From NCBI GenBank assembly GCA_016189025.1, contig JACPGS010000018.1:6921-70920 (forward strand): a DNA stretch of 64,000 nt. The letters run 5' to 3'. The notes below the pieces were generated by a model. The model worked only from the letters and a program-made list of their open reading frames with translations, was not told where the DNA came from and did not search any database. The translations under genes were made by a program, and so were the position numbers. Positions 43,899 to 61,031 of this stretch are shown here, piece after piece. Positions within the stretch are counted from its first letter, which is position 1, and the number at the start of each line of letters is the position of its first letter. This DNA is from Candidatus Magasanikiibacteriota bacterium (GTDB taxonomy: Bacteria > Patescibacteriota > Patescibacteriia > Magasanikbacterales > GWA2-37-8).

Positions 43899-44705
43899 AT
43901 GCCTCCTGGCGTTCACGTCGTTCTTTTTTGTTTGCGTCAGTTGCACCGCCCGGCGCCGGAGAGCCACAAAGGCGACAACGGACGTCTCTTAATTATCGCC
44001 GGATCCAAAAAATATCACGGCTCGGTGGTGCTCGCCGCTACTATGGCGAGTAAATTGGTGGATTTAGTATACCTGGCCACCACGCCGGATAATTTTTCCC
44101 TGATTAAAAAAGTCCGGGAGCGTCTGGCCGAGTTTATTTACATTGCGCCCCGCGAGCTCCCCGCTACTCTTACCGAAGTTGACGCCGTGCTCATCGGCCC
44201 TGGGTTGTTACCCAACGCGGCCACGCGCCGCCTGGTGCAACGTCTGCTGCGCCAGTGGCCCGACAAAAAAATCATTCTGGACGCCGCGGCCCTGCGCGTG
44301 CTTGACCCGCGCTGGCTTCCTCGGCAGTGTATTATCACCCCCCACGCCGGCGAATTTCGCGCCTTGTTTCGCCTTGCCCCTACTCCCCCAAATGTCCAGG
44401 CGCTCTCGCGGCGTTACCCCGGCGTTATTGTCCTAAAAGGACGCGTAGATTATCTTGCTCAAGGCGGCCGGCTCTGGTATAACACTGCCGGCAATGCGGG
44501 AATGACCAAGGGCGGCACCGGCGATGTGCTGGCCGGTTTAATCGCGGCACTTGCCACAAAAAACGACCCGCTCCTCGCGGCGCAGGCCGGAGTGTATGTA
44601 AACGGCTTAGCGGGGGATAAGTTGTATAAAAAAGTTGGCTATCATTATAGCGCTTCGGAGTTAATGCCGGAAATTCGGAAAATTTTATCACGCTTTGATT
44701 ATTGA
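43899..44705 (+). CDS. nnrD: ADP-dependent NAD(P)H-hydrate dehydratase
   Basis: SHKG.NG..LIIAGS..Y.G, IGPG, DA.AL, TPH.GEF, LKG and GGTGDVLAG motifs; ATG at 43899. Confidence 0.9.
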   Translation: MPPGVHVVLFCLRQLHRPAPESHKGDNGRLLIIAGSKKYHGSVVLAATMASKLVDLVYLATTPDNFSLIKKVRERLAEFIYIAPRELPATLTEVDAVLIGPGLLPNAATRRLVQRLLRQWPDKKIILDAAALRVLDPRWLPRQCIITPHAGEFRALFRLAPTPPNVQALSRRYPGVIVLKGRVDYLAQGGRLWYNTAGNAGMTKGGTGDVLAGLIAALATKNDPLLAAQAGVYVNGLAGDKLYKKVGYHYSASELMPEIRKILSRFDY

Positions 44706-44751
44706 TAGTAATCGGAGAAGCAGTGATGATTATCATTAATGTCGAGTAATT

Positions 44752-46200
44752 ATGAAGAAGTTAGCTATTCGAGACCCATTTTTGTTCGGCGAATGGTTTG
44801 ACCTAGGATGGTTTCACAGCTGTCATATCTATGGCCATACGATCACCATCAAGGAACGGCTTGGCTATGGGTTAAGTCAGGAAGTGGTAGAACAGGCAGG
44901 CACCATAGAGCGAATTTATTTTTCTCGCTCGGAGTGGACCAGAATTGGTAAGAAATACTTAAGCGAAGTTATCGCCAAACCTGCCAAGTTAAAAAAATTG
45001 CTCTCCGACCTGCGACGCGCTTCGAATCAGCTGCTGGTTTTCTCGCAAAAATTATTCACGGCTGATCCCGCCACCTTTTCCGGACAGCGGTTGGTACGCC
45101 TATTTGAGGCTTATCACGCGCGCCATCACGCGGTGTGGGCGATCGGTCAGGTGCCAAATGTATTGGAATTTCAAAATGCTTTCCTTACTGATTACCTTAA
45201 ACATTGGCTCGCCGGGCAGTCCCTTGCCGGAGCGGAACCGGTTAAAGTTTTTCAAACCTTGGTCACCCCCCGCGAACTTTCGGCCGCCCAGCAAGAGGAG
45301 CGCGCTATGCTGCGTCTGGCAGCGCAAAAAAATCCGGCGGTCGCTTTGCGCAAACATTGGCGCCAATTCAAGTGGCTGCAATTCGGCTGGACCGGCCCTG
45401 ATTTAACCCCGGAGTATTTTATTGACGTGCATCAGCGACTCTATAATGAAGGCCGGGTAAAATCAATTTTAAGCAAAACTTTACTAGCTGACCGGCAATT
45501 GGTGCGCGATAAAGAGCGACTAACAAAACAATTGCACTGCCCGCCTAAGATTAAGACTTTATTCCGCTTGCTGGAAGAACTGCTGTTCCTCAAATCGCAT
45601 CGGATGGATGCTCTCTACACTAGCTATAGCGCTATCCAGCCCTATTTAAAGCACCTGGCCCGCCGACATTATCTGGCGCTGCCGCAGTTATATAATCTTT
45701 ATCTGCCGGAATTAATCGCTATGTTGCGGCAGGGAGCAATTGATGCGGACTATCTTAATAATTTAGCCAAGTATTCGGTACGTTATTACGATGGCAAGCG
45801 TTGGTATTTACTCTTTGGTCAGGAAGCACGGCAAATAACCGAGGCAATCAAGCGTCGTCTGCCGCCTACCCCACTGCTCTCGGAACTTAAGGGAGAATGC
45901 GCCTATCCGGGCAAAGTTACCGGCAAGGTCTATATTATCAATCGGGCCGGGGAAATGGGCAAGTTTGAGTCGGGAGCAATTTTAGTTTCTAATATTACCG
46001 ACCCCTCGCTGTTGCCGGCCATGAAGCGGGCGGCAGCTTTCGTTACCAATACCGGCGGACTCACCTGCCACGCGGCGATTGTGGCGCGTGAGGTGCAAAT
46101 ACCCGGCGTCATCGGCACCAAAATTGCCACGCAAGCGCTCCGGGATGGCGATTTGGTAGAGGTAGACGCGACGGCGGGAGTGGTAAGGAAAATTAACTAA
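44752..46200 (+). CDS. Phosphohistidine swivel (PEP-utilizer mobile) domain protein, paralogue 1
   Basis: C-terminal G..AYPG...G, GAILV, GGLTCHAAIVARE, IP.VIGT and DGD.VEVDA; uncharacterised N-terminal region. Confidence 0.9.
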   Translation: MKKLAIRDPFLFGEWFDLGWFHSCHIYGHTITIKERLGYGLSQEVVEQAGTIERIYFSRSEWTRIGKKYLSEVIAKPAKLKKLLSDLRRASNQLLVFSQKLFTADPATFSGQRLVRLFEAYHARHHAVWAIGQVPNVLEFQNAFLTDYLKHWLAGQSLAGAEPVKVFQTLVTPRELSAAQQEERAMLRLAAQKNPAVALRKHWRQFKWLQFGWTGPDLTPEYFIDVHQRLYNEGRVKSILSKTLLADRQLVRDKERLTKQLHCPPKIKTLFRLLEELLFLKSHRMDALYTSYSAIQPYLKHLARRHYLALPQLYNLYLPELIAMLRQGAIDADYLNNLAKYSVRYYDGKRWYLLFGQEARQITEAIKRRLPPTPLLSELKGECAYPGKVTGKVYIINRAGEMGKFESGAILVSNITDPSLLPAMKRAAAFVTNTGGLTCHAAIVAREVQIPGVIGTKIATQALRDGDLVEVDATAGVVRKIN

Positions 46201-46203
46201 ACT

Positions 46204-47277
46204 ATGCTGGACACGGAAGTAGAAAAAATTGTGGCGGCCCTTGACTGGGAAAAACGCTGGATGGAGCGTTTTACCCTTTTTGCCACATCATTAATCGGCG
46301 ACGTCTATTTTTTTGGCTGTCAGGAGCAATTGGGAGTGGCATTCAACCGGATGTTCTTTGTTTACCAGGAAGGGATGGTTACGTGTTATCAGCTGATTTC
46401 AGAAAATACGGTCTTTGGCAACGCGCTGGCGCGCCGTTTGGAGGCGGATCACCATCTGGTTGATGGGTGGAACCGGGAAGTTAAAGATAAAGTTGATGAG
46501 GTTCTTAGTTTGGTTGCCGCCTACGAAGGCACCCTTTTTGAAGAGTCACACTACCTGGCTTTTGAGCACGCTTTTCGCGCACTGCAGCCACCCTTCGTTC
46601 GCTTAACCAGAGTCGCCAATTATCTGGCGCCGTCTTGGCACAATACTTTGTTGCCGCCACTGAATGCCATGCGTCTGGCCACGGAAACGGTATACGGCCG
46701 CGTTGATTCGTTTGTGCAGCGATCATTACGGCAATTAGCCGGCCAGATTGGCCGCGATCCTGATTTGGTAGAACTATTATATCATTATGAAGTGAGGGAA
46801 TTTGTTAAGCAGGGCACTTTGCCACCGGATGCCGAATTAAGAAGCCGTGCGCCGGTTAGCGGATTATATTTTGAAAACGGACGGCAATTCTTTTGTGATA
46901 GTAAAGAAGTTGGCTTATTTCAACGCCTGGTTGCCGATAAATTTGGCTCCCAGGATGGTATTGTTCGCGGGGTCACTGCGGTTCCCGGATATGTGAAGGG
47001 TACGGCGCGAATAATTTTTGACCCCCAAAAACCGGGTGTCTTTAATGACGGCGATATTCTGGTGACTAACATGACGTATCCGGAGTTTGTGCCCCTGATG
47101 AAAAAAGCCGGGGCGATTGTTACCGATGGCGGCGGCATTTTGTGCCACGCGGCCATTGTTGCTCGAGAATTGGGCAAACCCTGCCTGATCAATACCCAGG
47201 TAGCCACCTCGACTTTTCACGATGGTGAGCAGGTGGAGGTAGATGCGACGCAAGGAACAATCAAGAGAGCGGCATAG
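46204..47277 (+). CDS. Phosphohistidine swivel domain protein, paralogue 2 (short)
   Basis: GDILVT.MT.P and GGILCHAAIVARE. Confidence 0.9.
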   Translation: MLDTEVEKIVAALDWEKRWMERFTLFATSLIGDVYFFGCQEQLGVAFNRMFFVYQEGMVTCYQLISENTVFGNALARRLEADHHLVDGWNREVKDKVDEVLSLVAAYEGTLFEESHYLAFEHAFRALQPPFVRLTRVANYLAPSWHNTLLPPLNAMRLATETVYGRVDSFVQRSLRQLAGQIGRDPDLVELLYHYEVREFVKQGTLPPDAELRSRAPVSGLYFENGRQFFCDSKEVGLFQRLVADKFGSQDGIVRGVTAVPGYVKGTARIIFDPQKPGVFNDGDILVTNMTYPEFVPLMKKAGAIVTDGGGILCHAAIVARELGKPCLINTQVATSTFHDGEQVEVDATQGTIKRAA

Positions 47278-47280
47278 CCT

Positions 47281-48804
47281 ATGGAGCCTAAATACCTGCA
47301 CGACAACGACCCCTGGCTGCTCGCCGAGGACATCCCCGGCAGCGATTTGTTTTTCTTTCAAATTCCCTTTTGGTGTTTTGCCAACCGTTTCGGGGAACAA
47401 ACCGGACGAGCGTATAAAAAAGTTTTGGCTCATTTTTCCGGGTATCAGATGTGGTTTTATTTTGGCGAGCAGGATTCTTATGAAGTAGGGGAACATATCG
47501 TTAATCGGATTGTGGAACAGCCAGGCTATGGGGCGGATATTAACCAAAATATCATAGCGATAGCCGACAAATTACGCGCTTGGTGCGCCACCATTCCCGT
47601 GGAAAAACTCAATAATCTTTCCGACGCCGAGTTGTGGGAAATATATCACACGCATTACCAGCTCCATTGCGAATTTTACACCTGGGTATGGATCGGCAAT
47701 GCGACGGACATGTTCCATGCTAATTTTACCAACCGGCTAAAGGCTTACTTAAAACAAATCGGCGTGGTAGAAGACAAGATTAATGAGTATCTGGTTACTC
47801 TGACTACTCCCACCGCGCGAACGCCGGTCTTTGTGGAACAGCAGGATTTGTTGTTGATTGCGGAGCAAATATACCAGGATCAGGCGATCAGGCAGTTGTG
47901 CGCTACTTCCACTCCGCTGGTATACGAAGACCTCCCGCGCCGCCTGCAAACAATGATCCAACAGCACTGGGAGAAGTATCACTATACCAAATTTATTTTT
48001 GTGGAGGGCGAATATACCATTAATGATTATCTCCGGCAGCTGCAAGATATATTGCGCGGCGAAACTGCGCCGCGGGCGATTATTGAGGGACAAATAGAAG
48101 CGCTGCAGGCGGCGGAAGAAAAAAAGCGAATTCTTTTGGCGCAGTTGCCCGTTGCCCCGGAGTGGCAGGAGATATTTGCGGTTTTTGGCGACTTCATGGT
48201 AACCAAAATTTATCGTCGTTATGCCCAGCTTTTTGCCTTGCATCGCATGGATAAAGTTCTTAAGGAAATTGCCCGGCGCAAGCAGCTTTCCCTGAAACAG
48301 GTAAAATTCATGTTGAAAAGTGAAGTAGAGCGGTTGCTCCTCAAAAATTCCTGTGATCCGGAACTGTTGCGGGAACGCGCAAAGCAGTGCGTGTATTATG
48401 TGGAAAAAGATGGCGAGGCAGTATACGTCGGCCCGGCAGCCGAGGCCCTTATTGCAAAAACCGTTCGCACTATTGATGCCTCAATCAGTGAATTGAAGGG
48501 CGAAGTCGGGTGCACGGGTTATGCCCAGGGACGAGTAAAAATTGTTATTCGCGCCGAAGAGATGGCCAAGATGAACGACGGCGATATTTTGGTTTCTATC
48601 GCCACTGACCCGGACATTGTGCCGGCGATGAAAAAAGCCGCGGCGATTGTTACCGAACAGGGCGGCGTTACCAGCCACGCCGCCATTGTCAGCCGCGAGC
48701 TTGGCATCCCTTGCGTCATCGGCACCAAAATCGCCACCAAAATATTTAAGGACGGGGATTTGGTGGAAGTAGATGCGAATAGGGGAGTGGTGAGAAAAAT
48801 ATGA
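47281..48804 (+). CDS. Phosphohistidine swivel domain protein, paralogue 3
   Basis: GGVTSHAAIVSRE. Confidence 0.9.
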   Translation: MEPKYLHDNDPWLLAEDIPGSDLFFFQIPFWCFANRFGEQTGRAYKKVLAHFSGYQMWFYFGEQDSYEVGEHIVNRIVEQPGYGADINQNIIAIADKLRAWCATIPVEKLNNLSDAELWEIYHTHYQLHCEFYTWVWIGNATDMFHANFTNRLKAYLKQIGVVEDKINEYLVTLTTPTARTPVFVEQQDLLLIAEQIYQDQAIRQLCATSTPLVYEDLPRRLQTMIQQHWEKYHYTKFIFVEGEYTINDYLRQLQDILRGETAPRAIIEGQIEALQAAEEKKRILLAQLPVAPEWQEIFAVFGDFMVTKIYRRYAQLFALHRMDKVLKEIARRKQLSLKQVKFMLKSEVERLLLKNSCDPELLRERAKQCVYYVEKDGEAVYVGPAAEALIAKTVRTIDASISELKGEVGCTGYAQGRVKIVIRAEEMAKMNDGDILVSIATDPDIVPAMKKAAAIVTEQGGVTSHAAIVSRELGIPCVIGTKIATKIFKDGDLVEVDANRGVVRKI

Positions 48805-48865
48805 AGAAACGAATCTGGCGAAAAAATTTTGTTATCAGGAGCAGGGAATTTTTAGCCTGAATAAT

Positions 48866-50374
48866 ATGGCCCAGGACTACACCATCTTCGTCCGCGATTT
48901 TCAGACCAGCCTGTTTCCGCAGTATATTTTAACGCACTTGTGGAACACCAGCGGCGTGGTGAATACCAAAGCGCAGATTGGCATGGCGAATCGGAACAAA
49001 GTGCTGGAGTACATTATTCCGCCGGGCGATTGGGAACATTTGCAAACGCAGGTACATGAGCGAACTGCCGCCGACCGAAATTTTATTCCCCAGGCCGTGC
49101 GCCAGGCGCGGGCGGCCGTAGATGCACTTAATGAGTATACAGAACAGCAAATAGCGCAGAAAGATTTGACCTGCGCCAGCAACGAAGAATTAGCCGAGAT
49201 TTACCGGCGCTATTTTGAGCTGAACATTCCCTGTTATGGTTACGGCAACATCATTTTTATTATTGAATTCGGCGAGCGCGCTTATTTTAGCAATCAAATC
49301 AAGCAGCTCTTGGCCGCGCGTGCGCCGGAACAGCCGGCAGCGTATTTTACTTTACTGACCACTCCGGCGGAACCGCACATTTTTCAGGAGCAAAGTTTGG
49401 CTCTGCTCCAGCTGGCCAGCGCCATTGAATTGCAAACCGAGATTAAAGATTGGTTTTTGGCAAACGCCGGCGCGGGCATTGAACATCAGCTATTAGCGAA
49501 ATATCCGGCAGTGCTTGAGCAGTTCCAAAAACATCGCGCTGCCTACTACTGGCTGTTTTACAGCTGGGAAGGCCCGGCGCTGACGGTGGGCGATTTTGTG
49601 ATGTTTGCCGTGGATATTTTACGGCGCGGGTCGGCCGGCGCGCAGTTAGCAGAAAAAAAGGCAGAACAGGCCACGCTCGGCACGCGTCAGGAAAAGATTA
49701 TGCAGGAGCTGCACTTTTCCGAAGAAGAGCGCTGGTGGGTAAAAATGGCGCAACTATGCGCCGCGTTCCAGCCCTATCGCAAAGCGCGGCAATTCAAATC
49801 CTGCAGCCACATGGAAAAGTATTTCCGGGAGGTAGCGCGGCGATTATATATCAGTCTGGATCAGGCGCGGTATCTTACTCATTACGAAGTTGCCGAGGCG
49901 CTACGCAAGGGCGAAGTAGACACTAACCTGCTAAACGAACGCCGCAAATTTTTTGTGTATATTTTTGATAATAACCAGCCGCGGTGTCTTACCGGTTCCC
50001 CAGCCGAAGCGTGGTATCAAGAACACGTGGCACAAGAGATGCATCAATTTTCCGGAGAACTACGCGGCACGGTCGCCTGCCCGGGCCGGGCCACGGGAAA
50101 AGTGCGGATGGTGAACAGTTACGAAGAAGGCCAACAGTTTCAGCCAGGTGAAATTTTAGTTTCATTTTCTACTAACCCCACCCTTCTGCCGGCGATGCGC
50201 CTGGCCGCGGCGATTATTACCGAAGAAGGCGGGCTCACCTGCCACGCGGCCATCGTCAGCCGCGAGCTCAACATCCCTTGCGTGGTGGGAATTAAGGGGA
50301 TTGTTTCCGGACTGCAAACTGGCGAAACAATAGAAGTGGATGCGATAAAAGGGTTAGTTAAAAAATTATCCTGA
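48866..50374 (+). CDS. Phosphohistidine swivel domain protein, paralogue 4
   Basis: GGLTCHAAIVSRE. Confidence 0.9.
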   Translation: MAQDYTIFVRDFQTSLFPQYILTHLWNTSGVVNTKAQIGMANRNKVLEYIIPPGDWEHLQTQVHERTAADRNFIPQAVRQARAAVDALNEYTEQQIAQKDLTCASNEELAEIYRRYFELNIPCYGYGNIIFIIEFGERAYFSNQIKQLLAARAPEQPAAYFTLLTTPAEPHIFQEQSLALLQLASAIELQTEIKDWFLANAGAGIEHQLLAKYPAVLEQFQKHRAAYYWLFYSWEGPALTVGDFVMFAVDILRRGSAGAQLAEKKAEQATLGTRQEKIMQELHFSEEERWWVKMAQLCAAFQPYRKARQFKSCSHMEKYFREVARRLYISLDQARYLTHYEVAEALRKGEVDTNLLNERRKFFVYIFDNNQPRCLTGSPAEAWYQEHVAQEMHQFSGELRGTVACPGRATGKVRMVNSYEEGQQFQPGEILVSFSTNPTLLPAMRLAAAIITEEGGLTCHAAIVSRELNIPCVVGIKGIVSGLQTGETIEVDAIKGLVKKLS

Positions 50375-50381
50375 TAACATT

Positions 50382-51947
50382 ATGGCGATGGCCAAGGCGC
50401 TACGGCGCGATCGCTGGATTGTCGGCAATGAAGAAGACGGCACTAATTTGTACGCGCTCGGTTTGTATACGCCGATGTTTATTGTTGATTTTCCCCGGCT
50501 GGCCCAAGCGCCGCCTTGCTATCACGTATTTGAATTCAAAGGCGGCCATATGCGCTGGCTGGTGCCGGAAAATCACTCGCTCGCAATCGCCCGGCTTTTG
50601 TTGGAGCGCGTCCTCCGGCGTCCTAATTATTTTGGCGAAATCAGGCAAAAATTGGCGCGCATTTGCCATCAGGCTTATGCTTTTGGCAGGCAAGTTTTGC
50701 GGCTGAAAGTAGGAACTATCAGCGACGCCAGGTTATTATCACTACTGATGCGTTTTCAAAAATTGCAACGCACCATTATCGCCTATGGCATGATTTCTAC
50801 TTTAGTTGAAATACCCCACAGCCAGTTTGTTAAGCACCTGGAGAATTTTCTGGCTGATCACGTCAGCAAAATTAGCGCGCCGCCTGGCGCCCCTGAATAT
50901 TTTAGTATTCTTTCGGCGATTCCCGAAGAGAGTAGGCAGCGCCAGGAAGCCAAAAGTTTGCTGCGGTTATTGCAGACGGTGAAAAAATCTAAAAAATTAT
51001 TTAACGCCGTCGCCTCACTTAAACCAGGGGAGGGTAGCAAAAAATTTTTACGGCCTCCAGGCGATCCGGCAATGTTATCCTTTTATCGGCAGCTCAATTA
51101 TCATGTCAAAGAATTCTGCTGGGCGTATTATGGCTACGAAGGACCGGCGTACGGTATTGACCGCCCCCTTTCCGAGCTTGCCCAACTGCTCTCCGATAAA
51201 GTAGACCCGGCGGCGGAGCTAAAGCGTTTAGCCCGGGAGCGGGCGCAAATCAGGCCGGCGACCAAAATAGCCGAGCGTACCCTGAAGCTATCGGCTTACG
51301 AGCGCGCCTTATTCCAGGCCCTGCGCGATACGGTGTTTATGAAGCTTTATCGCAAAGACGCCATGACTTTTGGGTTTTATTCCGCCGAGTCATTGCTTAA
51401 AGAATTGGCGCGCCGGGCCGGCATTGCTTTAGCCGCCGCTAAATGTTTGGCGCCGGGCGAATATGCGCGGGCATTGAGGCAGGACAAAAAATTGATTGCC
51501 GAACTCTATCGGCGGATTCCGTATGCCGTATATGCGGCGGATTCTCTTAAACCGCGGGTATTATCCGGTAGTCGCGCCCGCCGGTTTATTAAAAGTATTT
51601 ACCGCGAGGAAGCGGTCGGCGATGTCCGCGAGCTCAAAGGCCAGGTGGCCTGTTTAGGGCACGCTACCGGCGCGGTAAAAATTATCAACGTCGCGGCGGA
51701 AATGGGCAAAATGAATAAGGGCGATATTTTAGTGTCCATCGCCACGATTCCCGATATTGTGCCGGCGATGAAAAAGGCGGCCGCGATTGTTACCGAGCAG
51801 GGCGGCATTACCTCTCACGCCGCCATCGTCAGCCGCGAACTCGGCGTCCCCTGCGTCATCGGCACCAAAATAGCCACCAAAGTATTTAAGGACGGGGATT
51901 TGGTAGAGGTGGATGCCATTGAGGGAATTGTGTACAAGCTCAAGTGA
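50382..51947 (+). CDS. Phosphohistidine swivel domain protein, paralogue 5
   Basis: GGITSHAAIVSRE. Confidence 0.9.
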   Translation: MAMAKALRRDRWIVGNEEDGTNLYALGLYTPMFIVDFPRLAQAPPCYHVFEFKGGHMRWLVPENHSLAIARLLLERVLRRPNYFGEIRQKLARICHQAYAFGRQVLRLKVGTISDARLLSLLMRFQKLQRTIIAYGMISTLVEIPHSQFVKHLENFLADHVSKISAPPGAPEYFSILSAIPEESRQRQEAKSLLRLLQTVKKSKKLFNAVASLKPGEGSKKFLRPPGDPAMLSFYRQLNYHVKEFCWAYYGYEGPAYGIDRPLSELAQLLSDKVDPAAELKRLARERAQIRPATKIAERTLKLSAYERALFQALRDTVFMKLYRKDAMTFGFYSAESLLKELARRAGIALAAAKCLAPGEYARALRQDKKLIAELYRRIPYAVYAADSLKPRVLSGSRARRFIKSIYREEAVGDVRELKGQVACLGHATGAVKIINVAAEMGKMNKGDILVSIATIPDIVPAMKKAAAIVTEQGGITSHAAIVSRELGVPCVIGTKIATKVFKDGDLVEVDAIEGIVYKLK

Positions 51948-52360
51948 TTTGTGTTATGGAAAAAGCAGAGATGTGGTTAACTCGTTTTATTGCTTGGGCG
52001 AGAATTAAAACCAAAATTCATCTTGCCGAACGGGAAATATATTTTCGTGAGGGAGAAATTTGGTGGACTAGCTTAGGCGTGAACATTGGCCATGAGCAAG
52101 ATGGGAAGAATGAATATTTTGAACGGCCGGTATTGATTTTAAAGAAGTTTGGCAGGTATACTTTATGGGCTGTTCCTTTGTCGAGCCGCCTTAAGTATAG
52201 TCCTTATTATTTTCAATATACTTACCATGGGAGAAATTATTCTGCTTTACTTACCCAATTACGGTTGATTAGTAGTAAAAGGTTATTGAGAAAGGTTGGA
52301 GTGATTGATGTTATGGTATTTCGGGCTATTAAAGAAAAGATAAAAAAATTATTACAATAA
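51944..52360 (+). CDS. PemK/MazF-fold toxin-like protein
   Basis: GEIWW..LG.NIG.EQ.G...RPV.I..K, VPLS and Q.R.IS.KRL motifs; very AT-rich. Confidence 0.85.
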   Translation: MICVMEKAEMWLTRFIAWARIKTKIHLAEREIYFREGEIWWTSLGVNIGHEQDGKNEYFERPVLILKKFGRYTLWAVPLSSRLKYSPYYFQYTYHGRNYSALLTQLRLISSKRLLRKVGVIDVMVFRAIKEKIKKLLQ

Positions 52361-52452
52361 AAAACGATTCCCGCTCTTCTAGAGTGGGAATCTCGGAGCT
52401 TCTCTCGTAAAAGAGAAGCCATTTGACAGAAGCAGCTTACGCCACTTCGCCA
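52357..52452 (-). ncRNA. Candidate small RNA convergent on the toxin gene
   Basis: Minus-strand TTGACA-16-TAATAT with extended -10 TG at about 52455-52483, two hairpins (52366-52392, 52398-52419) and a U-tract. Confidence 0.45.
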
Positions 52453-52540
52453 GGTATATTACCAAAGTAAAAATATTTGTCAAGTAAACTATCCACATAG
52501 TCCAATCAAGGAATCTAAACTATAGTTTATAGTTCCTACT

Positions 52541-52822
52541 ATGGCACTGGGGCAGCTGACGTTAGCGGTATACGGCGACGTGCAGGGCGTGGGGTTCCGC
52601 TGGTTTGTGCAAGAGCAGGCGGTTAAGCTCGGTCTAGTCGGCTGGGTACGCAATAATCCGGATGGTACGGTCGGCGTCGTTGCCCAAGGAGTCGAGGAAA
52701 AGTTGCGTGAATTTTTGGCGCTCTGCCGCCACGGCCCGGGTTTTGCCCGCGTGCGCGAGGCGGTGGAAGAGTGGCAGGAAATTCCTAAACTGGACTTTGT
52801 CGATTTTGAGATTAAGTTTTGA
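52541..52822 (+). CDS. acyP: Acylphosphatase
   Basis: G.VQGVGFR, GWVRN..DGTV, GP..A.V and F.I motifs. Confidence 0.93.
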   Translation: MALGQLTLAVYGDVQGVGFRWFVQEQAVKLGLVGWVRNNPDGTVGVVAQGVEEKLREFLALCRHGPGFARVREAVEEWQEIPKLDFVDFEIKF

Positions 52823-52834
52823 TAGTGTTGCCAT

Positions 52835-54370
52835 ATGAATCAGCGACAGTTTAAGAAATATTTGGGCGAGGCAGAGGCGCTGCATAGTGAATTCGGGGTA
52901 ACACCGCTGACGATTACACTAATTCAGCACGGTTTTCATCATCCTTTGTTAAAGAAGTATTTGCGTGAATGGTATTTGCCGACGTCGGTAGTTGAATGTA
53001 TCGGCGATAAAATTAATTGGTTTATTAGTGCCGATTTTTTGCGTGCCCAGGAACATTTTGTCGTTGATACCATCAAAAGAGATCGTTCTCTGGTAAAAAC
53101 CGTCATCCGCGAGTCAAGACGACAAGGGAAGGCCATTGATTTAATTGTTCGTAAGATTGACACAGCGTCCAGCAAGGGAGTTACTGCTAAGCGAGCTGCC
53201 CTCTTATTGATCAAGTTATTTGCGGCCATGGAGCAGCTTTGTGCGTATGGTTTTATTGCAGTTTTAAGTGATTTATATTATTTTACTTTCACTCGCGAAC
53301 TAACTACGCTAATAGAACAATATGCCGCTTCGCAAGGATCAGCGCAACCCGTCAAAGAATACGTGAGCATCTTGATAACTCCTACTGTAAAGACCGTTAC
53401 CTGGAAATATAAGCAGGCCTTGTTTCAATTAGCACTGAAGATAGCAAGATTAGGGATAACCCGTCCCGCTAATCCGCCCAAATTAATTATCAGTAACAAA
53501 ATATTGTTAAAGCAAGCTCAACAAATCGTTCGTGAATTTTATGCCGTAAATTATGGTCATCGCGGTCCGGCACTGACTCTTAAAGCAATAATTTCTGAAG
53601 TCGCCGATCTCGTTAGCAAAAATAAAGTGCATCGCGCCTATCGCGCCTTTATATCCGAACATACCGCTATCCGAGCCAAACAATGTCGTTATATTCGCCG
53701 GTTAAAACTTAGCAAACAAGCGGTATATTTACTAGAAGCTGCCAAACAGTTTATCTATATTAAAGGATTTCGTTTAGAAAAACTTTATCAATCCTATGCC
53801 GCCATTGATCGGTTATTGTCTCAAGTGACTGATCATAAAATATCGTTAGATAATCTTAAACGTTGTTCTAAGTTTGAAGTACTGCGCTTCTTAAAAGATG
53901 GCAAGCTGCCGACAGCCCGCGAGTTAACCAGACGTACAAGACACTTGACGTATACGGCTTGGCAACATACCAAAGCCAAAATTCGCACTGGCGCCGCCGC
54001 TGGTCGTTATCTTCAGACTTTCGTCGCTAAAACCAAAGATAATAAAGTACGTTTTTCCGTTCACGGTAACATTGCCTGCGCGGGACGAGCGACCGGCACG
54101 GCAAAAATTGTCCAAAGCGGCAAAGATATGCAAAAAGTACGTGAGGGAGATATTTTAGTGGCGGTGCAAACTATTCCTGAATTGCTACCGGCGATGAAAA
54201 AAGCCGCTGCTTTTGTTACTGATATTGGAGGCATCACCTCCCACGCAGCAATCGTTAGTCGCGAAATGGGCAAGCCCTGTGTAATTGGCACGCGAGTGGC
54301 TACCCAGGTGTTTAAAGACGGAGATTTAGTGGAAGTAGATGCCATTAAAGGTATCGTGCAAAAGATATAG
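52835..54370 (+). CDS. Phosphohistidine swivel domain protein, paralogue 6
   Basis: GGITSHAAIVSRE; AT-richer N-terminal coding region. Confidence 0.9.
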   Translation: MNQRQFKKYLGEAEALHSEFGVTPLTITLIQHGFHHPLLKKYLREWYLPTSVVECIGDKINWFISADFLRAQEHFVVDTIKRDRSLVKTVIRESRRQGKAIDLIVRKIDTASSKGVTAKRAALLLIKLFAAMEQLCAYGFIAVLSDLYYFTFTRELTTLIEQYAASQGSAQPVKEYVSILITPTVKTVTWKYKQALFQLALKIARLGITRPANPPKLIISNKILLKQAQQIVREFYAVNYGHRGPALTLKAIISEVADLVSKNKVHRAYRAFISEHTAIRAKQCRYIRRLKLSKQAVYLLEAAKQFIYIKGFRLEKLYQSYAAIDRLLSQVTDHKISLDNLKRCSKFEVLRFLKDGKLPTARELTRRTRHLTYTAWQHTKAKIRTGAAAGRYLQTFVAKTKDNKVRFSVHGNIACAGRATGTAKIVQSGKDMQKVREGDILVAVQTIPELLPAMKKAAAFVTDIGGITSHAAIVSREMGKPCVIGTRVATQVFKDGDLVEVDAIKGIVQKI

Positions 54371-54377
54371 ATTTTCT

Positions 54378-54998
54378 ATGATTGCCAAAAAAAATATTAA
54401 ATTCATTATCTTTGACGCCTACGGCGTCTGCCTTACCGGCGGGTATCCGGATACCTGCCGGTATCTGGCCAAAAAGTTTAACCGCGATTGGCAAGATATT
54501 TACGCTGTCCTTTATACCAAATATTTCAATCAGGCCGCTACTAAGCAAATCACCCAACAGGCGGCCTGGGCCAAGGCGCTTAAAGAGCTTAATTTTCCCT
54601 TAACAGTGGCCGCGGTTAAGCGGATTCATTATCGTCTGATGGGTTTGAATTGGCCGGTACTGAAAATTGTGCAAAAAATAAGCGAAAAAGTTCCTGTTCT
54701 GTTGTTAAGCAAAAATACGCGGAGCCAATTCAAAGACATTAATAATAAATTTCCCCGGTTGAGGCAAATTTTTGGCCAGCACATTATTAATACCTGGGAG
54801 TATAACCTGCCTAAAGCCAGCCCGGAAACGCTAGCGATGATTTTTAAGCGATATCATATTACCGACCCGGCCACGGTAGTGAGCATTGATGACCAAGACA
54901 ATAATTTAGTGGCGGCGCGGGAATTGGGCGTTAATGCTATTTTGTATAGAAATTTTGGTCAATTCAAGCGCGAGCTTGCTCGGCTGATTAACATTTAG
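54378..54998 (+). CDS. HAD-superfamily hydrolase (phosphatase)
   Basis: IIFDAYGV motif I, LLS, K and IDD...N..AA..LG; ATG at 54378. Confidence 0.82.
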   Translation: MIAKKNIKFIIFDAYGVCLTGGYPDTCRYLAKKFNRDWQDIYAVLYTKYFNQAATKQITQQAAWAKALKELNFPLTVAAVKRIHYRLMGLNWPVLKIVQKISEKVPVLLLSKNTRSQFKDINNKFPRLRQIFGQHIINTWEYNLPKASPETLAMIFKRYHITDPATVVSIDDQDNNLVAARELGVNAILYRNFGQFKRELARLINI

Positions 54999-55002
54999 AG
55001 CT

Positions 55003-56529
55003 ATGCGCCAGAAATATCATCAGGGTGCATGGTCGCTCTTGTCGCAGCGCCAGCGAATGAGCCCGTTTCCCAATTACTTGTCCATGGAAGCGGTGTGCCG
55101 CGAGATGAAGCAGTTCGTCGGTATCGCGTTGCGCGACGTTATTTTATTTTTCCAGGGCAATATCATGTTTGCTTTTCAGCCTTTGCTGTCGCACCAGCGC
55201 GCGGCGCGCTTGATTGCCGACCGCGTGCAAAAAAATCCGCGCCTGTATGCTGGTTTGATTAAAAAACAACATGGCTACGGAAAAAATTTAGTAAACTTTG
55301 CCCGGCAGGCGGCGCGCCAGACTAGGCGGGGCAAGGCTTCTCCCCAGCAATTATGCGATTGGTTTACCGGCTACGCCCAGCGATATAAATTAGTTTATGC
55401 CTCGTACGGGTCGGTTTGGACAATGGAAGACGAGCTAGTCGGAGATCTTTATGCGCTGGTGGAAAAGCGAATAAAAGATCCGCTTGAGGCCAGCAATATC
55501 TTAAATACGCTCACCAAACAGCCGCTGGCGATGGTGGTCACCCGCGAACGCCAGGCATTATTGAAAATGGCAATGAGCATTGCTTTACATCAGGAATGGC
55601 AGCAGGCGGTGAGGGCCGGCGAGTGGTCAGGGATTAAAAAGTATCAGCCGCTCCTCCGACTGATTACCGCGCACCAGAAAAAATTTTACTGGATCACCCG
55701 CGATTATGAAGATCCAATTTTGACTAATGAAAAAATTATTGAGCGGCTGCGGCAGGTATTGGCAGGTGATGTTGCCCAAGAATATCGTCAATTAACAGAT
55801 GCTTTAGCCAATGACCTCGCGGCGAGAAAGCGCTATGAAAAAGAACTACGGCTCACGGCGGCAGAACGCCAACTCTTTGCCGCGATGCGCGATGCCGCCC
55901 ATCTTAAAGAGCTGCGCAAACAATATGTTTCATCATCGCTTTATCATTTTGATTCAGTACTGGCCGAGATCGGGAAACATTTGTATTTAAGCATCAAGCA
56001 AGTGCGCTTTATGCATACCGCAGATGTCGCCGCGGCCCTGCTTAAAGGTCGGGATTTAACCCGGGCGCTTAACGAGCGGATGAAACTATCAATGTGGCAT
56101 ACGGTGGATGGCCGCGATACCAAAGTCAGTGTCGGCCCGGAGGCCGCGGCAATGTTTGCCCGGTTTTGTACGGTGGATAAGAATACCAGAGAATTTACCG
56201 GCATGCCGGTTTCCCCTGGGTTGGCGCGCGGCCCTGCTAGGTTGGTGATGAATCCGGACGAGTGCGACAAGGTTCAGAAAGGTGATATTATTGTGAGCAT
56301 TCAGGTGGTGCCGAGTTTTTCCACCGCTATTATCAAATCCGCCGGCATGGTCTGCGACGGCGGGCACGGCATCACTTCGCACCCGGCCACCCTGGCCCGC
56401 GAAGCCAAAATACCCTGCGTTATCCAAACCCGCTTTGCGCGGGAGGTAGTGAAAGATGGTGATATTCTGGAGGTAGATGGGTATCAGGGTGTGGTACGAA
56501 TTATTGACAAAAAGGATGCCGGGAGATGA
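55003..56529 (+). CDS. Phosphohistidine swivel domain protein, paralogue 7 (variant His loop)
   Basis: DGGHGITSHPATLARE, IPCV and DGD.LEVDG. Confidence 0.88.
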   Translation: MRQKYHQGAWSLLSQRQRMSPFPNYLSMEAVCREMKQFVGIALRDVILFFQGNIMFAFQPLLSHQRAARLIADRVQKNPRLYAGLIKKQHGYGKNLVNFARQAARQTRRGKASPQQLCDWFTGYAQRYKLVYASYGSVWTMEDELVGDLYALVEKRIKDPLEASNILNTLTKQPLAMVVTRERQALLKMAMSIALHQEWQQAVRAGEWSGIKKYQPLLRLITAHQKKFYWITRDYEDPILTNEKIIERLRQVLAGDVAQEYRQLTDALANDLAARKRYEKELRLTAAERQLFAAMRDAAHLKELRKQYVSSSLYHFDSVLAEIGKHLYLSIKQVRFMHTADVAAALLKGRDLTRALNERMKLSMWHTVDGRDTKVSVGPEAAAMFARFCTVDKNTREFTGMPVSPGLARGPARLVMNPDECDKVQKGDIIVSIQVVPSFSTAIIKSAGMVCDGGHGITSHPATLAREAKIPCVIQTRFAREVVKDGDILEVDGYQGVVRIIDKKDAGR

Positions 56530-56545
56530 TTAATTATTGTGAATT

Positions 56546-56580
56546 AAAAAATCCGTTTGCCTAGACAAACGGATTTTTTA
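56546..56580. terminator. Bidirectional intrinsic terminator closing the paralogue array
   Basis: AAAAAATCCGTTTG-CCTAGA-CAAACGGATTTTTT. Confidence 0.82.
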
Positions 56581-56708
56581 GTCATCTCACAATTCTTCAG
56601 AGAATAATCGTAAGACGAACCGGGCGACGTGATGACAGTACATTGTCATCACGCCGCCCGAGCTCTGGGGATGAGTTGCCCCGGGCGGGGCAGAGGAGGG
56701 GAGGGGGG

Positions 56709-57389
56709 CTACTTGGTGGGGGTGGGGAAGGTTGCCGGCGGCGTGAACTTCTGGACGCTGATGACGTTGCCACCGTCATCCAGAAAGAACAGGAAGGCCT
56801 GGCACTCCTCCAGGCCGAGGAGCTCCGGCTTGGCGCCCACCTGCGCCGCGTACAGGCTGATCGCCGGCTCGTGGTCGAAGGTGATCACCAGTCTGCCCTC
56901 CGGGAATGCGTTGCGGACGAAGTCCGTGGCGTTCGCGAGCGCCCGGGCAACCGGCTGCGGGCCGAAGAGGCTGGGGTCGGCCGCGAGTCGCCGGAGCATG
57001 TCGCTGACCGACAGGCCCTCGGCCTTCCAGTGGGCGTGCAAGTTGGGGTGCTTGCTGCCCGCAGGAGCGGGCGCTTTCTTGACGCTCGCGTCGAGGTTGA
57101 GGCGCGAATCACGGACGATCTGCTCCGCGTTGGTCACGAGGAAAGTCGTGAGGAGCGACCGCGGGTACTCGCTGCACGCGTACATGCACTGGTGGCCGAA
57201 CTGGCGCATGAGCGACCCACCGATGAGTACCGCGTACTCATTGCGCACCGCGACGCACAGCGCGGCACCGCTGCTCGTCAGCGTCCGCGTCTCGTTCGGC
57301 CCGTCCTGGACCGAATGCGAGTGGCGGCCGCGCACCACGCAGCGAACCGCGTCTTCGGGGATCTGGATTTCGGAAGCCTTGGTCGCCAT
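56709..57389 (-). CDS. Hypothetical protein (GC-rich orphan)
   Basis: AAGGAGG SD before ATG at 57389; strong G/C third-position bias. Confidence 0.65.
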   Translation of the reverse strand: MATKASEIQIPEDAVRCVVRGRHSHSVQDGPNETRTLTSSGAALCVAVRNEYAVLIGGSLMRQFGHQCMYACSEYPRSLLTTFLVTNAEQIVRDSRLNLDASVKKAPAPAGSKHPNLHAHWKAEGLSVSDMLRRLAADPSLFGPQPVARALANATDFVRNAFPEGRLVITFDHEPAISLYAAQVGAKPELLGLEECQAFLFFLDDGGNVISVQKFTPPATFPTPTK

Positions 57390-57618
57390 GGCGACCCTCC
57401 TTTTTTGTGGTTTCCCGGCCATTTGTGCCTGCTGCCGAATCATTTCGGTTCAGGTGTGCCTTGGCCAAAGGCGAATAGGTTCTCAAGAGAAATTACTATC
57501 TCCCCTGGGAACCTACCGCCTTTGACTTATGGTAGCCCTTGATTGTAAAAGTACTCATCCGTTATGACTCTAGGATAGCAGCGCGTTAAGCACTGCTTTT
57601 TCATCATCATAACGTCAT

Positions 57619-57664
57619 ATAATAGCACATTTTCTTGCTTTTGTCAAGAGGGTGTGCTATAGTA
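57619..57664. promoter_or_regulatory. Overlapping divergent sigma-70-type promoters
   Basis: Minus strand TTGACA-17-TATTAT; plus strand TTGCTT-17-TATAGT. Confidence 0.65.
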
Positions 57665-57727
57665 TTTTGGCTAATTTCAGCAAAAATTTTATTCAATAAA
57701 ATGGCTTAAACTAGCCAAAATTTTTAT

Positions 57728-58600
57728 ATGCCTAGAGAATTATCAGCCGAACCACAACGGGAGCAAGAACGCCGGCCGGAAAATTTTATCACGGCCTATT
57801 ATATGCGCCACGGTGAAAGTTCATCTGATAAAAATGATCCGTTGCGCGGGTTAACCGATAAAGGGATAGAGCAGGTACGAAAGGCAGTAGAGCGGGTAGC
57901 GTCAGAAATTCCCGATAAGAATTCACAAATTCGGCTATATAGCAGTGGCAGCGAACGCACCCGGCAGCAGTGCATTGTGGCGGCTGCGGTGTTACGCGAT
58001 GCCAATTTTACCAATATCACGATTGATGCCAATTCTTTGCCCGAAAAGCGCGCCGAGTTAACCGGCAAGGGAGTGCGCTTCACCAAAATCCTTTCCGGCG
58101 ATGAATTAAAAGAAGCGCAGGCAGCGACGATTGCCCAGTTAGGTTTGCGCCAAGAGGGCCCCGGCATTGGCAAAAGAATCGCGGAACTCAAAGCGCCTAA
58201 AGAATATCCGACTAAACTTAGGGGGTTGGAGGCTGATACCGGGATTAGTGCGGTAGTCCATTGGCTAACGGATAAAGAAGTGCCGGCCGGAGCAGAATCG
58301 CGAGCGCAAAAAGCTGCCACGGTAGCTAAAGCAGTAGAGATTGCCAATCGCTGGGCAGAGCACATGCGCCGCGCTGCGGAAAAAGGCAAAGAAGTTAAGC
58401 CAATGGTGGCTTTAGCATTCGGTCATTCTTCGGCGCTCACTGCCTATGGCGCTGATGTTTTTGGCTGGCAAGGTGAAGAGTTGGCAGAGGTAGAAAACGC
58501 CGAAGGATTAAAAATAGATTTCTCTGGTATTGCCGACGAAACACCCCGTATTCAGCCATTCGGCGAGAAGATTGAGGCCAAGGTAAATCCTATCGGATAA
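57728..58600 (+). CDS. Histidine phosphatase superfamily protein
   Basis: RHGES, LT.KG..Q, SS...RT.Q and C-terminal GH motifs. Confidence 0.8.
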   Translation: MPRELSAEPQREQERRPENFITAYYMRHGESSSDKNDPLRGLTDKGIEQVRKAVERVASEIPDKNSQIRLYSSGSERTRQQCIVAAAVLRDANFTNITIDANSLPEKRAELTGKGVRFTKILSGDELKEAQAATIAQLGLRQEGPGIGKRIAELKAPKEYPTKLRGLEADTGISAVVHWLTDKEVPAGAESRAQKAATVAKAVEIANRWAEHMRRAAEKGKEVKPMVALAFGHSSALTAYGADVFGWQGEELAEVENAEGLKIDFSGIADETPRIQPFGEKIEAKVNPIG

Positions 58601-58756
58601 TCAAAGAGATTGTATCCAAAAATTCCCTTGATATTTATAAAACCCTGGACTTTTTGGTTCAGGGTCCTTTTTAATATCTCACTCGTGAGAAACTAAAGAG
58701 GGGTGCCGAGCGGGGGGAGATGAACTTCCCCCCGCTCGGTAGATTGGGTGAGGTTG

Positions 58757-59662
58757 TTAGCGGGCGCCGTTGGTCGCGCCGGCGTCCGTGGCCCGACGGC
58801 CGTTGCCCTGACGCCTCCGGTTCGACGGGGTGATGCGCGGCGGGTTGGAGAACGACGTCGTGGCCGGCGCGGGCGTGGGCGTGGGCGTGGGCTCCTGCGG
58901 CGGCTCCGCCGGCGCTGCCTCCGGCGCGGGGACGACGGGCGCGGCGGCGGCGGGGATGCGCTCGTCATCGGGCGACGGGAGCGGATCACTGCTCGCGCGC
59001 ACCTCGGGCGGCGGGGTGGGCGGGGCGGTGGCGAACGGCTCGGTCGTCTCCGGCGCCTGGACCGCCGGCTCGGGGATCGCCTGGAAGGCGAGGTTGGGAT
59101 TGGCGATCGCCTCGGCGGGGCGGCTGGCCTCGGTCTCGGTCAGCATGACCACGAGCGGCGCGTCGAAGTGCGTCAGCCCGGGGAAGCCGAGCTTCAGCCG
59201 GTGGGCCGGCGCGATGACGACGAGCGCCTGGGCCCCGGCCTCGGCCGCCGACTTCACGGCCTCGCTGATGGCGGCGCGTACCGTCTGCTCGAGCTGTTTC
59301 CACACCTGCCCCAGCGCCCGCGCGTCGCTCGGCTCCAGGTAGGAGACGCGGCGCGCGTAGGCCTCGTTGAGCGAGCCGTCCTGCGCCAGCAGGTGCTGGA
59401 GCAGGTCGTTGCCGTACCGGTGGCAGGCGTTGAACCGCTGGTCGCCGGCCACGCCGTCGTGCTCCACCCAGATGGGGTGGAGCCCGCGGCCGAGGGCGGC
59501 GTTGACCGGCTCGCTCTCGGCGATGCCGGTCGGACCGGTCCAGCGCAGCTGGGCGATGCCCTGCTGGTCGCAGTGGTCGTAGATGCGGGCGCTCGCCGCC
59601 CGCAGGGTGGCGAAGTCGATGACTTCGCCGAGGAGGGGGAGGGGAACGAGGAAGAGTTTCAT
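58757..59662 (-). CDS. Hypothetical protein with Pro/Ala/Thr-rich tail (GC-rich orphan)
   Basis: GGAG SD, strong G/C third-position bias, own promoter. Confidence 0.6.
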   Translation of the reverse strand: MKLFLVPLPLLGEVIDFATLRAASARIYDHCDQQGIAQLRWTGPTGIAESEPVNAALGRGLHPIWVEHDGVAGDQRFNACHRYGNDLLQHLLAQDGSLNEAYARRVSYLEPSDARALGQVWKQLEQTVRAAISEAVKSAAEAGAQALVVIAPAHRLKLGFPGLTHFDAPLVVMLTETEASRPAEAIANPNLAFQAIPEPAVQAPETTEPFATAPPTPPPEVRASSDPLPSPDDERIPAAAAPVVPAPEAAPAEPPQEPTPTPTPAPATTSFSNPPRITPSNRRRQGNGRRATDAGATNGAR

Positions 59663-59878
59663 TGGTATCTCCGCGCTTGGCCGTGGTATTGCTAGGTTCC
59701 TTCTCCGGCCGTTAAGAAGGTAGCTAGCCAGTGAAGATCTTCTTCACCGTTTAGCTACCTTCTTTAATCATTTTTTGGGGCGCTTTCGGAGTTAGGATGT
59801 CAAGGTACTCACCGGTTACGGCTGGCAGCCTAGCGCTTAAGTGGGGCGCCGGAATAGGCCGCACCGCCATAACTTTAC

Positions 59879-59922
59879 AGCTTACCCCCTGCCTTTACTT
59901 TCGTCAAGAGCTTGAGTATAAT
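59879..59922. promoter_or_regulatory. Overlapping divergent sigma-70-type promoters
   Basis: Minus strand TTGACG-17-TAAGCT; plus strand TTTACT-17-TATAAT. Confidence 0.65.
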
Positions 59923-59941
59923 GGCTTGTGCATAACTTAAT

Positions 59942-60955
59942 ATGTCGCATTTAAAATTTTTTCCCGATCTTACCAAAAAAGATGTGGCAATAGCCGGCGG
60001 CAAGGGCGCGTCGCTCGGCGAACTGACGCGAGCCGGAATTCCGGTGCCGCCCGGGTTTGTGGTGCTGGCGGCGGCTTGGGACAGATTTTTAGAAGAAACC
60101 GATCTTAATGCCGAAATTATGGCGCGACTCAAAGAGGTTAATCCGGCTGATACCAATTCAGTGGATCGGGCCAGCAATGTTTTGCGTGATGCGATTCATG
60201 ATCGGTCGCTGCCGGCTGATTTAGGCGAGGAGATTTTGGCGGCGTTTGACGAGTTAGGGAGTAAAAAGTCGGGGGCTCGGAATGACAGCGCGTGTTTGGT
60301 AGCGGTGCGATCGAGCGCGACCGCCGAGGACTCGGCAGTGGCGAGCTGGGCCGGTGAGCTGGAAACGTATTTGAACACCAGGCGGGAAAATGTTTTAGAG
60401 CGAGTGAAACTATGCTGGTCGTCGCTTTTTACCCCGCGCGCTATTTTTTATCGCCACGAAAAAAATCTGATTGATCATTATGTATCGGTCGCGGTAGTAG
60501 TGCAGCAAATGGTGCAATCAGAAATCTCCGGCATTGCTTTTACCGTGCATCCGGTAACCGAGGACCGGGACCAGATGATTATTGAAGCGGGATTTGGCCT
60601 CGGCGAAGCGATTGTCGGCGGCCAGATTACGCCGGACTCGTATGTAGTAAGCAAGAGCGAGATGAGTATTATTGATATTAATGTTAGTACCCAGACCAGA
60701 AAGTTAGTGAAAAAGGTAAAAGGGGGAAAGGGACAAACCGACGAGGAAAATAAGTCTAACGAATGGGTAGATTTGAGTGAAGCGGAAGGAGGCCGGCAAA
60801 AGTTAAGCGGCCAGCAGATTATTGAGCTGGCGGCGATTTGCCAGAGGATTGAAAAACATTACGGATTCCCCTGCGACATTGAGTGGGCGTATGAGGGGGG
60901 AAAATTCTACGTTACCCAAAGCCGGCCGATTACGACCTTAAAAATCCGCGGTTAA
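59942..60955 (+). CDS. Stand-alone PEP synthase/PPDK N-terminal ATP-grasp domain protein
   Basis: GGKGASLGEL, VP.GF, VAVRSSATAEDS, VVVQ.MV, GLGEA.V.G..PD and DIEWA...Q.RPITT, then stop; no His domain or PEP-binding barrel. Confidence 0.92.
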   Translation: MSHLKFFPDLTKKDVAIAGGKGASLGELTRAGIPVPPGFVVLAAAWDRFLEETDLNAEIMARLKEVNPADTNSVDRASNVLRDAIHDRSLPADLGEEILAAFDELGSKKSGARNDSACLVAVRSSATAEDSAVASWAGELETYLNTRRENVLERVKLCWSSLFTPRAIFYRHEKNLIDHYVSVAVVVQQMVQSEISGIAFTVHPVTEDRDQMIIEAGFGLGEAIVGGQITPDSYVVSKSEMSIIDINVSTQTRKLVKKVKGGKGQTDEENKSNEWVDLSEAEGGRQKLSGQQIIELAAICQRIEKHYGFPCDIEWAYEGGKFYVTQSRPITTLKIRG

Positions 60956-61031
60956 CAGCAATTGACACGTTGGTAATCAGTATTGTATTATTGAATAGTC
61001 GGGGAGGCTTAATTATTTAATTTTTTGCGGT

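Follow-up and report, generated by a model that had tools for sequence, protein, structure and literature searches.

This analysis concerns a group of genes in a 64,000-nucleotide stretch (hereafter the window, to which coordinates refer) of a Candidatus Magasanikiibacteriota genome (GCA_016189025.1, contig JACPGS010000018.1, positions 6,921 to 70,920), which appears to encode a split phosphotransferase akin to rifampin phosphotransferase (RPH). The host genome measures 1.22 Mb in 34 contigs and is 97% complete. Seven genes bearing a phosphohistidine swivel domain, all on the plus strand, occupy positions 44752–56529: H1 (44752–46200; 482 amino acids), H2 (46204–47277; 357), H3 (47281–48804; 507), H4 (48866–50374; 502), H5 (50382–51947; 521), H6 (52835–54370; 511) and H7 (55003–56529; 508). 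A gene further along the same strand (59942–60955; 337 amino acids) encodes a stand-alone ATP-grasp subunit, here called the loader after its proposed function. In each of H1–H7 Pfam matched a single domain, PF00391 (E 3e-14 to 4e-27), located at the C-terminus; neither an ATP-grasp nor a phosphoenolpyruvate (PEP) barrel was found in any of them. The sole Pfam match of the loader was PF01326 (PPDK_N; E 2e-95), and its sequence stops immediately after RPITTLKIRG.

The initial annotation of this DNA had described seven co-oriented genes with an intact C-terminal His swivel and neither ATP-grasp nor PEP barrel, next to a gene coding for an ATP-grasp alone, and these features were all confirmed. 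Its picture of a seven-to-one system held for the window, but it had missed the HAD-family, histidine-phosphatase and acylphosphatase genes interleaved with the array, as well as an eighth RPH-type module on contig C4 (95570–96682), directly followed by the second of the two PF00300 genes of the genome. The genome thus has eight RPH-type modules for one free ATP-grasp. Counting this module, two swivel-only genes outside the window, as well as an intact PEP synthase gene, lie on other contigs.

Swivels and acceptor domains of the modules

The His motifs of H1–H7 are, in order, GGLTCH, GGILCH, GGVTSH, GGLTCH, GGITSH, GGITSH and GHGITSHP. All seven retain the catalytic His, as do 106 of 106 independent modules. 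Pairwise identity among H1–H7 was 33–80% (mean 51%) for the swivels and 11–22% (mean 17%) for the N-terminal regions, in keeping with the strong N-terminal divergence noted initially. The swivels of H3 and H5 are 81% identical in DNA over 258 nt (48535–48792 and 51675–51932), with 19% amino acid identity between the two N-termini, and near-identical module ends occur within a polyprotein of genome G221. Both cases suggest that swivels undergo gene conversion or serve as sites of module exchange. A repeat search revealed no repeats at cassette ends, only the similarity of the swivel coding sequences.

The fold of the N-terminal regions was addressed with an alignment-based AlphaFold2 model of H3 of mean pLDDT 93.6; a single-sequence fold (pLDDT 37.9) was discarded. 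Compared with residues 321–866 of RPH (PDB 5hv1), the model gave a Z score of 18.5 over 436 aligned residues, with a root-mean-square deviation of 5.3 and 15% identity, and the top six Foldseek matches were all RPH entries (E 3e-13 to 2e-11). The comparison with the rifampin-binding domain of RPH that had been proposed at the outset therefore returned, for the H3 model, the RPH acceptor fold, and no nucleotide-binding fold was found in its N-terminal region. When 102 sequences of the H3 family and the window were combined into a profile, it aligned to RPH residues 521–866. An acceptor-domain profile retrieved independent modules, with E values as low as 1e-75, along with two RPH-like comparators (E ~1e-5), and no PEP synthase. 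Combined, these results point to an RPH acceptor-domain fold in all seven N-terminal regions, predicted from the model for H3 and through homology (BLAST and acceptor profile) for the other six, H1, H4 and H6 among them. H2, a short-type module, lacks the middle helical part of the domain; the acceptor profile matched it at positions 11–113 and 285–376 only, and its best match among the first 40 loci was module 7 of a 3181-amino acid fused protein. A viral scan matched 80 loci essentially in the swivel only and was not used.

A quick acceptor-domain tree, whose long branches restrict it to questions of paralog age and of orthologs crossing genomes, showed deep branches in which the window paralogs were not mutual nearest relatives and H3 grouped with modules of three other genomes. 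Orthologs of H1, H3 and H7 were found at 47–58% identity, H1 being 47% identical to a module in locus L063. These data support old module paralogs whose orthologs cross genomes, and a recent tandem duplication was rejected as the origin of the array. H3 belongs to an orthologous subfamily that is widespread and whose members in relatives are often fused to a winged helix: six of its 14 best orthologs, of 625–634 amino acids, carry an N-terminal extension of ~100 residues, and Pfam called a helix-turn-helix in the extension of both orthologs that were scanned (L023 and L032). H7 represents a conserved subfamily characterised by an HPATLARE swivel and the motif K-E-L-R-K.

Residues of the predicted transfer pocket

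RPH uses Arg666, Glu667 and Lys670; the second transfer cannot proceed without Arg666 and Glu667, and Glu667 is kept across RPH clades (PMC4844700). At the three corresponding positions the independent modules carried K/R/Q in 93, D/E in 56 and K/R in 84 cases out of 106, and an extra Arg immediately preceded the last motif position in 91. The window modules depart from the Arg-Glu-x-x-Lys motif of RPH, having instead the variant [K/Q]-x-x-R-[K/R/M/L], or R-L-A-T-E in H2. Such a homologous yet variant pocket leaves room for a different acceptor chemistry or for non-catalytic modules. Two residues before the catalytic His, Thr was found in 97 of the 106 independent modules and in six of the window modules, with Leu in H2.

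The ATP-grasp subunit and its clade

The loader shares a WAG[E/Q]L signature and 54–78% identity with 23 other ATP-grasps, from free and fused genes; its identity to the PEP synthase of its own genome is 38%. In their alignment K21 and R123 are invariant and position 142 is Thr or Ser. By motif match, as distinct from superposition, K21, R123 and T142 of the loader are equivalent to Lys22, Arg117 and Thr136 in the ATP site of RPH (PMC4844700). In a quick tree of 36 rows these proteins formed a clade with support 99, distinct from PEP synthases and from RPH-like proteins, in which free and fused forms from bacteria as well as archaea were united. In the swivel tree, H1–H6 grouped weakly (81) with the swivels of fused clade proteins, apart from those of PEP synthases (98), and H7 was an unplaced long branch; neither tree contained a HpeI or PpsB sequence. 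A survey of 201 genomes of the phylum gave 30 matches of at least 477 bits in 28 genomes, the next match scoring 393; about half of the 30 belonged to the query alignment and the remainder scored equally high. Twenty-five were stand-alone (24 genomes) and five fused. As judged from sequence, the loader is a member of a distinct ATP-grasp clade of bacteria of the candidate phyla radiation (CPR) and DPANN archaea.

An ATP-grasp of this kind might be the leftover half of a split ppsA with no relation to the array, as its best NCBIfam score, 335 bits to PEP synthase, and the ATP-grasp of genome G215, for which no module was found, would suggest. However, the only PEP barrel of the genome (PF02896) lies inside an intact 813-amino acid PEP synthase on contig C18, the loader falls in a separate clade, and the domain order of PEP synthase occurred in none of the best 150 representatives, in which the first swivel starts at least 220 residues past the ATP-grasp. 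Domain order, barrel location and tree refute a split ppsA at the sequence level, and we give it hardly any credence; the initial annotation had named it as a possible refutation of its own proposal.

Co-occurrence and fusion of the two components

A clade ATP-grasp was present in 15 of the 17 genomes with at least four swivel matches, versus 13 of the 184 with fewer (hand count); the corresponding Fisher p of 3e-13 is overstated, since the genomes are kin and not independent. Among 41 relatives, 14 had swivel matches outside ATP-grasp-bearing open reading frames (ORFs), and ten of these carried the clade ATP-grasp (nine intact, one broken). The other four comprised a broken ATP-grasp of uncertain clade (G039), a contig-edge fragment (G034) and two genomes with none (G001, G038). 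No free ATP-grasp was found in the 27 relatives without stand-alone swivel genes. When 80 named loci were picked by the ATP-grasp alone, 70 contained a swivel; there were two or more in 53 loci and four or more in 22, and no extra swivel appeared in 20 PEP synthase control loci. Among the taxa in the record titles of the ATP-grasp loci were many Patescibacteria lineages, Nanoarchaeota, Woesearchaeota and Iainarchaeum. The expectation that the two gene types would co-occur across genomes was borne out, and it extended to fused genes. Of the three outcomes that the initial annotation had listed as refuting it (an N-terminal nucleotide-binding fold, a split ppsA and a lack of co-occurrence), none emerged from these comparisons.

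Of the best 150 representatives, 92 had one swivel, 39 two or more, each with a single ATP-grasp, and 19 none. The 3181-residue chain of G221 consists of one ATP-grasp and seven acceptor-swivel modules. All seven N-terminal regions of the window matched modules within fused chains, H3 at 32% over 390 amino acids. In multi-module fusions, the service of several unlike modules by one ATP-grasp is built into a single polypeptide, and on domain content these proteins are the strongest indirect support for loader sharing.

Accessory phosphatases

The array is interrupted by genes for an acylphosphatase (52541–52822, plus strand; PF00708, E 2e-25) and a HAD-family hydrolase (54339–54998, plus strand; PF00702). 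The latter belongs to an array-tied subfamily and is a partner of H7: its 11 homologs, at 36–64% identity, all lay within array loci, and it adjoins or is fused to six of nine H7 orthologs. Downstream, a gene on the plus strand (57728–58600) encodes a histidine phosphatase with the RHG motif (PF00300, E 2.5e-6; SixA model E 2e-4, below cut-off), homologs of which come after H7 orthologs in L074, L094, L099, L115 and L138. HAD, H7 and histidine phosphatase form a conserved sub-cassette near the ATP-grasp. Between H7 and this phosphatase gene, the minus strand (56709–57443) encodes a divergent protein of the histidine-phosphatase fold, without Pfam match but with E 1e-5 to the profile of array-associated histidine phosphatases and with homologs in four other array loci. 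A histidine phosphatase lay within 500 bp of the ATP-grasp in 18 of the 80 loci and in none of the 20 controls (p 0.02), as detected with a profile built partly from the same loci.

The sub-cassette raises the question of whether the ATP-grasp serves a cognate core only, most plausibly HAD-H7-phosphatase, the other modules being inactive cargo or charged in trans by PEP synthase. H7 alone keeps the RPH acid, broken module genes are common in relatives, some genomes have modules and PEP synthase with no clade ATP-grasp found, and the swivels score best against PEP synthase models. By contrast, all seven window genes are intact and have the His, H1–H6 group with fused clade proteins and apart from PEP synthase swivels, multi-module fusions place unlike modules on one ATP-grasp, and the eight-swivel arrays of G064 and G127 occur in genomes whose sole PPDK_N match is a stand-alone ATP-grasp. 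We regard so restricted a partnership as quite unlikely.

The phosphatases would also fit a sensing phosphorelay, in which the shared ATP-grasp charges the modules, many of these act as ligand-gated phosphohistidine switches or protein phosphodonors, and the phosphatases reset them. Consistent with this are the helix-turn-helix extensions of H3 orthologs, the RPH acid missing from six of the seven window modules, the position of both PF00300 genes flanking system genes, one with a weak SixA match, and the prevalent Thr two residues before His, which is the regulatory site of PEP synthase (PMC12167813). However, the majority of modules are devoid of DNA-binding or output domains, the basic residues of the pocket show the conservation expected of a catalytic site, and the fusion of a HAD to an H7 ortholog points to a phosphorylated small molecule as product. 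Neither the PF03618 regulator nor HPr (PF00381) was found in the 97% complete genome. A relay of this type seems unlikely. A phosphotransferase-system-like relay through HPr was rejected, given the lack of any PF00381 match in a genome of that completeness.

Some loci showed other arrangements of the same parts. A three-part version (L041:155–3581, L045:3182–5660 and L027:5623–5937) consists of a free swivel of 104–124 amino acids, resembling a free carrier such as HPr, a histidine phosphatase and a 363-amino acid protein; the latter had no match to Pfam or to the acceptor profile. In L041 this set adjoins a clade ATP-grasp. In L004 (8825–10090), a GHKL/MORC-like ATPase is fused to a His swivel; downstream are genes for a helical protein and a histidine phosphatase and a broken gene for an ATP-grasp. 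A separate conserved swivel class of 370 amino acids (contig C4 of genome G000, 45317–45994; L017, L018, L024 and L031), sometimes beside pyruvate kinase or PGI, has an N-terminus unrelated to the RPH acceptor domain, which is possibly a divergent ATP-grasp (hhalign probability 0.15; Atlas leads under 0.9). By inspection, a 214-amino acid swivel gene elsewhere in the genome has an N-terminus resembling this class. In L042, L048 and L049 the clade ATP-grasp is accompanied by a cluster of class I methyltransferases, which hints at wider small-molecule modification islands.

Genomic setting and assembly

Besides the phosphatase genes, the array is interrupted by a PemK/MazF-like gene (51944–52360, plus strand; PF02452, E 1e-11; GC content 36%), which is probably a passenger; a PemK-like homolog was found near a module gene in L016. 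An ORF on the minus strand (58757–59662) has 75% GC, versus 53% for the genome, and neither a Pfam match nor a homolog in the fetched loci. Directly upstream of H1 lies a stand-alone NAD(P)H-hydrate dehydratase gene (43737–44705; PF01256), with a high-copy repeat at ~43760–43890, and before it a gene for a HerA/TrwB-like ATPase with a Pro-rich tail (41599–43695). In relatives, a gene for such an ATPase marks the position of the array or of the ATP-grasp, and the site accordingly behaves as a variable cargo slot. PADLOC gave no match for any array gene, and HerA-like matches for the upstream ATPase only. The best named homologs came from Candidatus Magasanikbacteria and other Patescibacteria.

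Three overlapping contigs of sequencing run X1, possibly the source sample, span 43840–62000 with 0, 2 and 0 differing letters, so that an assembly chimera was rejected. Contigs of four groundwater runs from one study, three of them possibly the source, cover the stretch evenly. At positions 46093 and 46105 the window has G and all four runs have T; these letters may be consensus errors, since T turns AREVQIPGVIG of H1 into the family-typical ARELQIPCVIG.

Discussion

We consider it probable, if well short of assured, that one stand-alone ATP-grasp loads several acceptor-swivel modules, each of which passes the phosphate to its own small-molecule acceptor. The system would be a hub-and-spoke form of a two-component dikinase of the RPH/HpeHI type. 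By analogy with RPH and HpeHI chemistry, the ATP-grasp would transfer the beta-phosphate of ATP to the swivel His of each module, releasing AMP and Pi, during transient docking through a conserved swivel face; docking of this kind would allow a single loader to serve partners that, over their remaining ~400 residues, are less than 22% alike. The charged swivel would then swing to a pocket with the basic motif [K/R/Q]-x-x-R-[K/R], where RPH has Arg666–Lys670. The co-encoded HAD, histidine phosphatases and acylphosphatase may remove phosphate from products or histidines, closing the cycle. Sharing of a loader is feasible, since HpeH does not bind stably to HpeI, the ATP-grasp subunit, and the rate is a linear function of the amount of HpeI (PMC12167813). 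Nor need the acceptors be hydroxyls: the N-P bond-forming dikinases TalE and Cj1418, which differ in being single-enzyme pathway kinases, phosphorylate amines and amides (PMC6482885). At its weakest step, the proposal would see the array as a swappable library that tags diverse host- or environment-derived small molecules, trapping them for salvage or inactivating them, in a cell that could not afford an ATP-grasp for each substrate.

Several observations weigh against this explanation. The loader gene has its own promoter-like site and lies 3.4 kb from H7, with two opposite-strand ORFs between. An acid equivalent to Glu667 is found in one of the seven window modules (H7, K-E-L-R-K) and in 56 of the 106 independent ones. 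G215 carries a clade ATP-grasp, yet outside its PEP synthase no swivel was matched; conversely, no clade ATP-grasp was found in G044, G137 and G237, which have modules, or in G135, which has five swivel matches. The sole stand-alone swivel gene of G012 belongs to another class, and in G047 and G070 modules are lacking from the 5 kb around the ATP-grasp. Counted across the whole locus, histidine phosphatases, found in 42 of the 80 loci versus 7 of 20 PEP synthase controls, are not clearly enriched, and the neighbouring genes point to no pathway.

The direction of phosphate flow might also be the opposite, with modules stripping phosphate from host metabolites and the shared ATP-grasp making ATP from AMP and Pi, or with exchange between acceptors. 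This would suit the energy-poor lifestyle of CPR bacteria. However, PEP hydrolysis and the conversion of ATP to AMP and two Pi are similar in energy yield, so that ordinary phosphate esters could not drive the reverse flow, and the co-encoded phosphatases would waste donors. Even though HpeH alone moves phosphate between substrates (PMC12167813), we hold this direction to be very unlikely.

The division of a small-molecule dikinase into two parts is established, HpeHI, CreHI, the phenylphosphate synthase PpsAB and AcvAB forming a published split subfamily (PMC12167813, PMC12624787). Like the array, these enzymes combine a separate ATP-grasp of ~340 amino acids with an RPH-type acceptor domain followed by a C-terminal His swivel, and a phosphatase is also part of the Hpe and Acv pathways. 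In the published accounts of HpeHI, CreHI and PpsAB, each pathway has a single pair, the substrates are phenolic and the 71-kDa His subunits are ~45% alike; two residues before the His, the phenolic kinases have Met (PMC12167813). By contrast, the array sets one ATP-grasp against eight RPH-type modules of 357–521 amino acids that are less than 22% alike, mostly with Thr at that position, and has no carboxylase neighbours. The modules score 74–97 bits, through the swivel only, against PRK08296 (cut-off 578), which we take to be the CreH/PpsA-like family.

With RPH-Lm and its family (PMC4844700; PDB 5HV1, 5FBS–5FBU) the modules appear to share the acceptor fold, the position of the swivel and the basic residues at Arg666 and Lys670, and the fused clade members have the same domain order. 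The array differs in being split into separate, multiplied genes, in its shorter acceptor domain, 15–16% identical to that of RPH, and in the absence of Glu667 from six of seven modules; against NCBIfam rph (NF041857, cut-off 999), the modules scored 53–74 bits and the ATP-grasp 280. The PEP synthase models give the best scores for both ATP-grasp and swivels, and the GGxT[S/C]H motif is PEP-synthase-like, but the array proteins have no PEP/pyruvate barrel and the real PEP synthase of the genome lies elsewhere, in another clade. By these comparisons the array would work like HpeHI and RPH yet falls outside both the rph equivalog and the phenolic kinase subfamily.

With the split enzyme already published, the new part is its one-to-many layout, recurring across ultra-small bacteria and archaea. 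No description of a one-to-many array, of the polyproteins or of the phosphatase partners was found in the literature searched, in agreement with the initial annotation, which knew of no characterised example; mentions in supplements or subscription papers are possible. A term search of PMC8421398 and PMC8204110 gave no relevant passage on one-to-many arrays.

A genome of 1.2 Mb devotes ~17 kb to this system here, and the ATP-grasp clade occurs in 28 of the 201 sampled genomes of the phylum. Databases label the parts as PEP synthase or hypothetical, by which metabolic reconstructions of CPR and DPANN organisms can be misled. If one loader serves many modules, the array would parallel, among kinases, the systems in which a single reductase supplies many oxygenases. 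The idea lends itself to a direct test with nine soluble proteins, and the RPH family, with a handful of known substrates, would gain a broader range of acceptors. More tentatively, and as a possibility that we think somewhat doubtful, CPR bacteria and DPANN archaea may share a so far undescribed programmable kinase platform, in which one conserved loader and an ancient library of exchangeable modules, kept as separate genes or as polyproteins of up to seven modules, are joined by dedicated phosphatases and regulator fusions, each module phosphorylating a different host-derived metabolite or antimicrobial. Such a platform would offer a large number of small-molecule kinases yet to be tapped, and may form a layer in the chemistry between host and symbiont.

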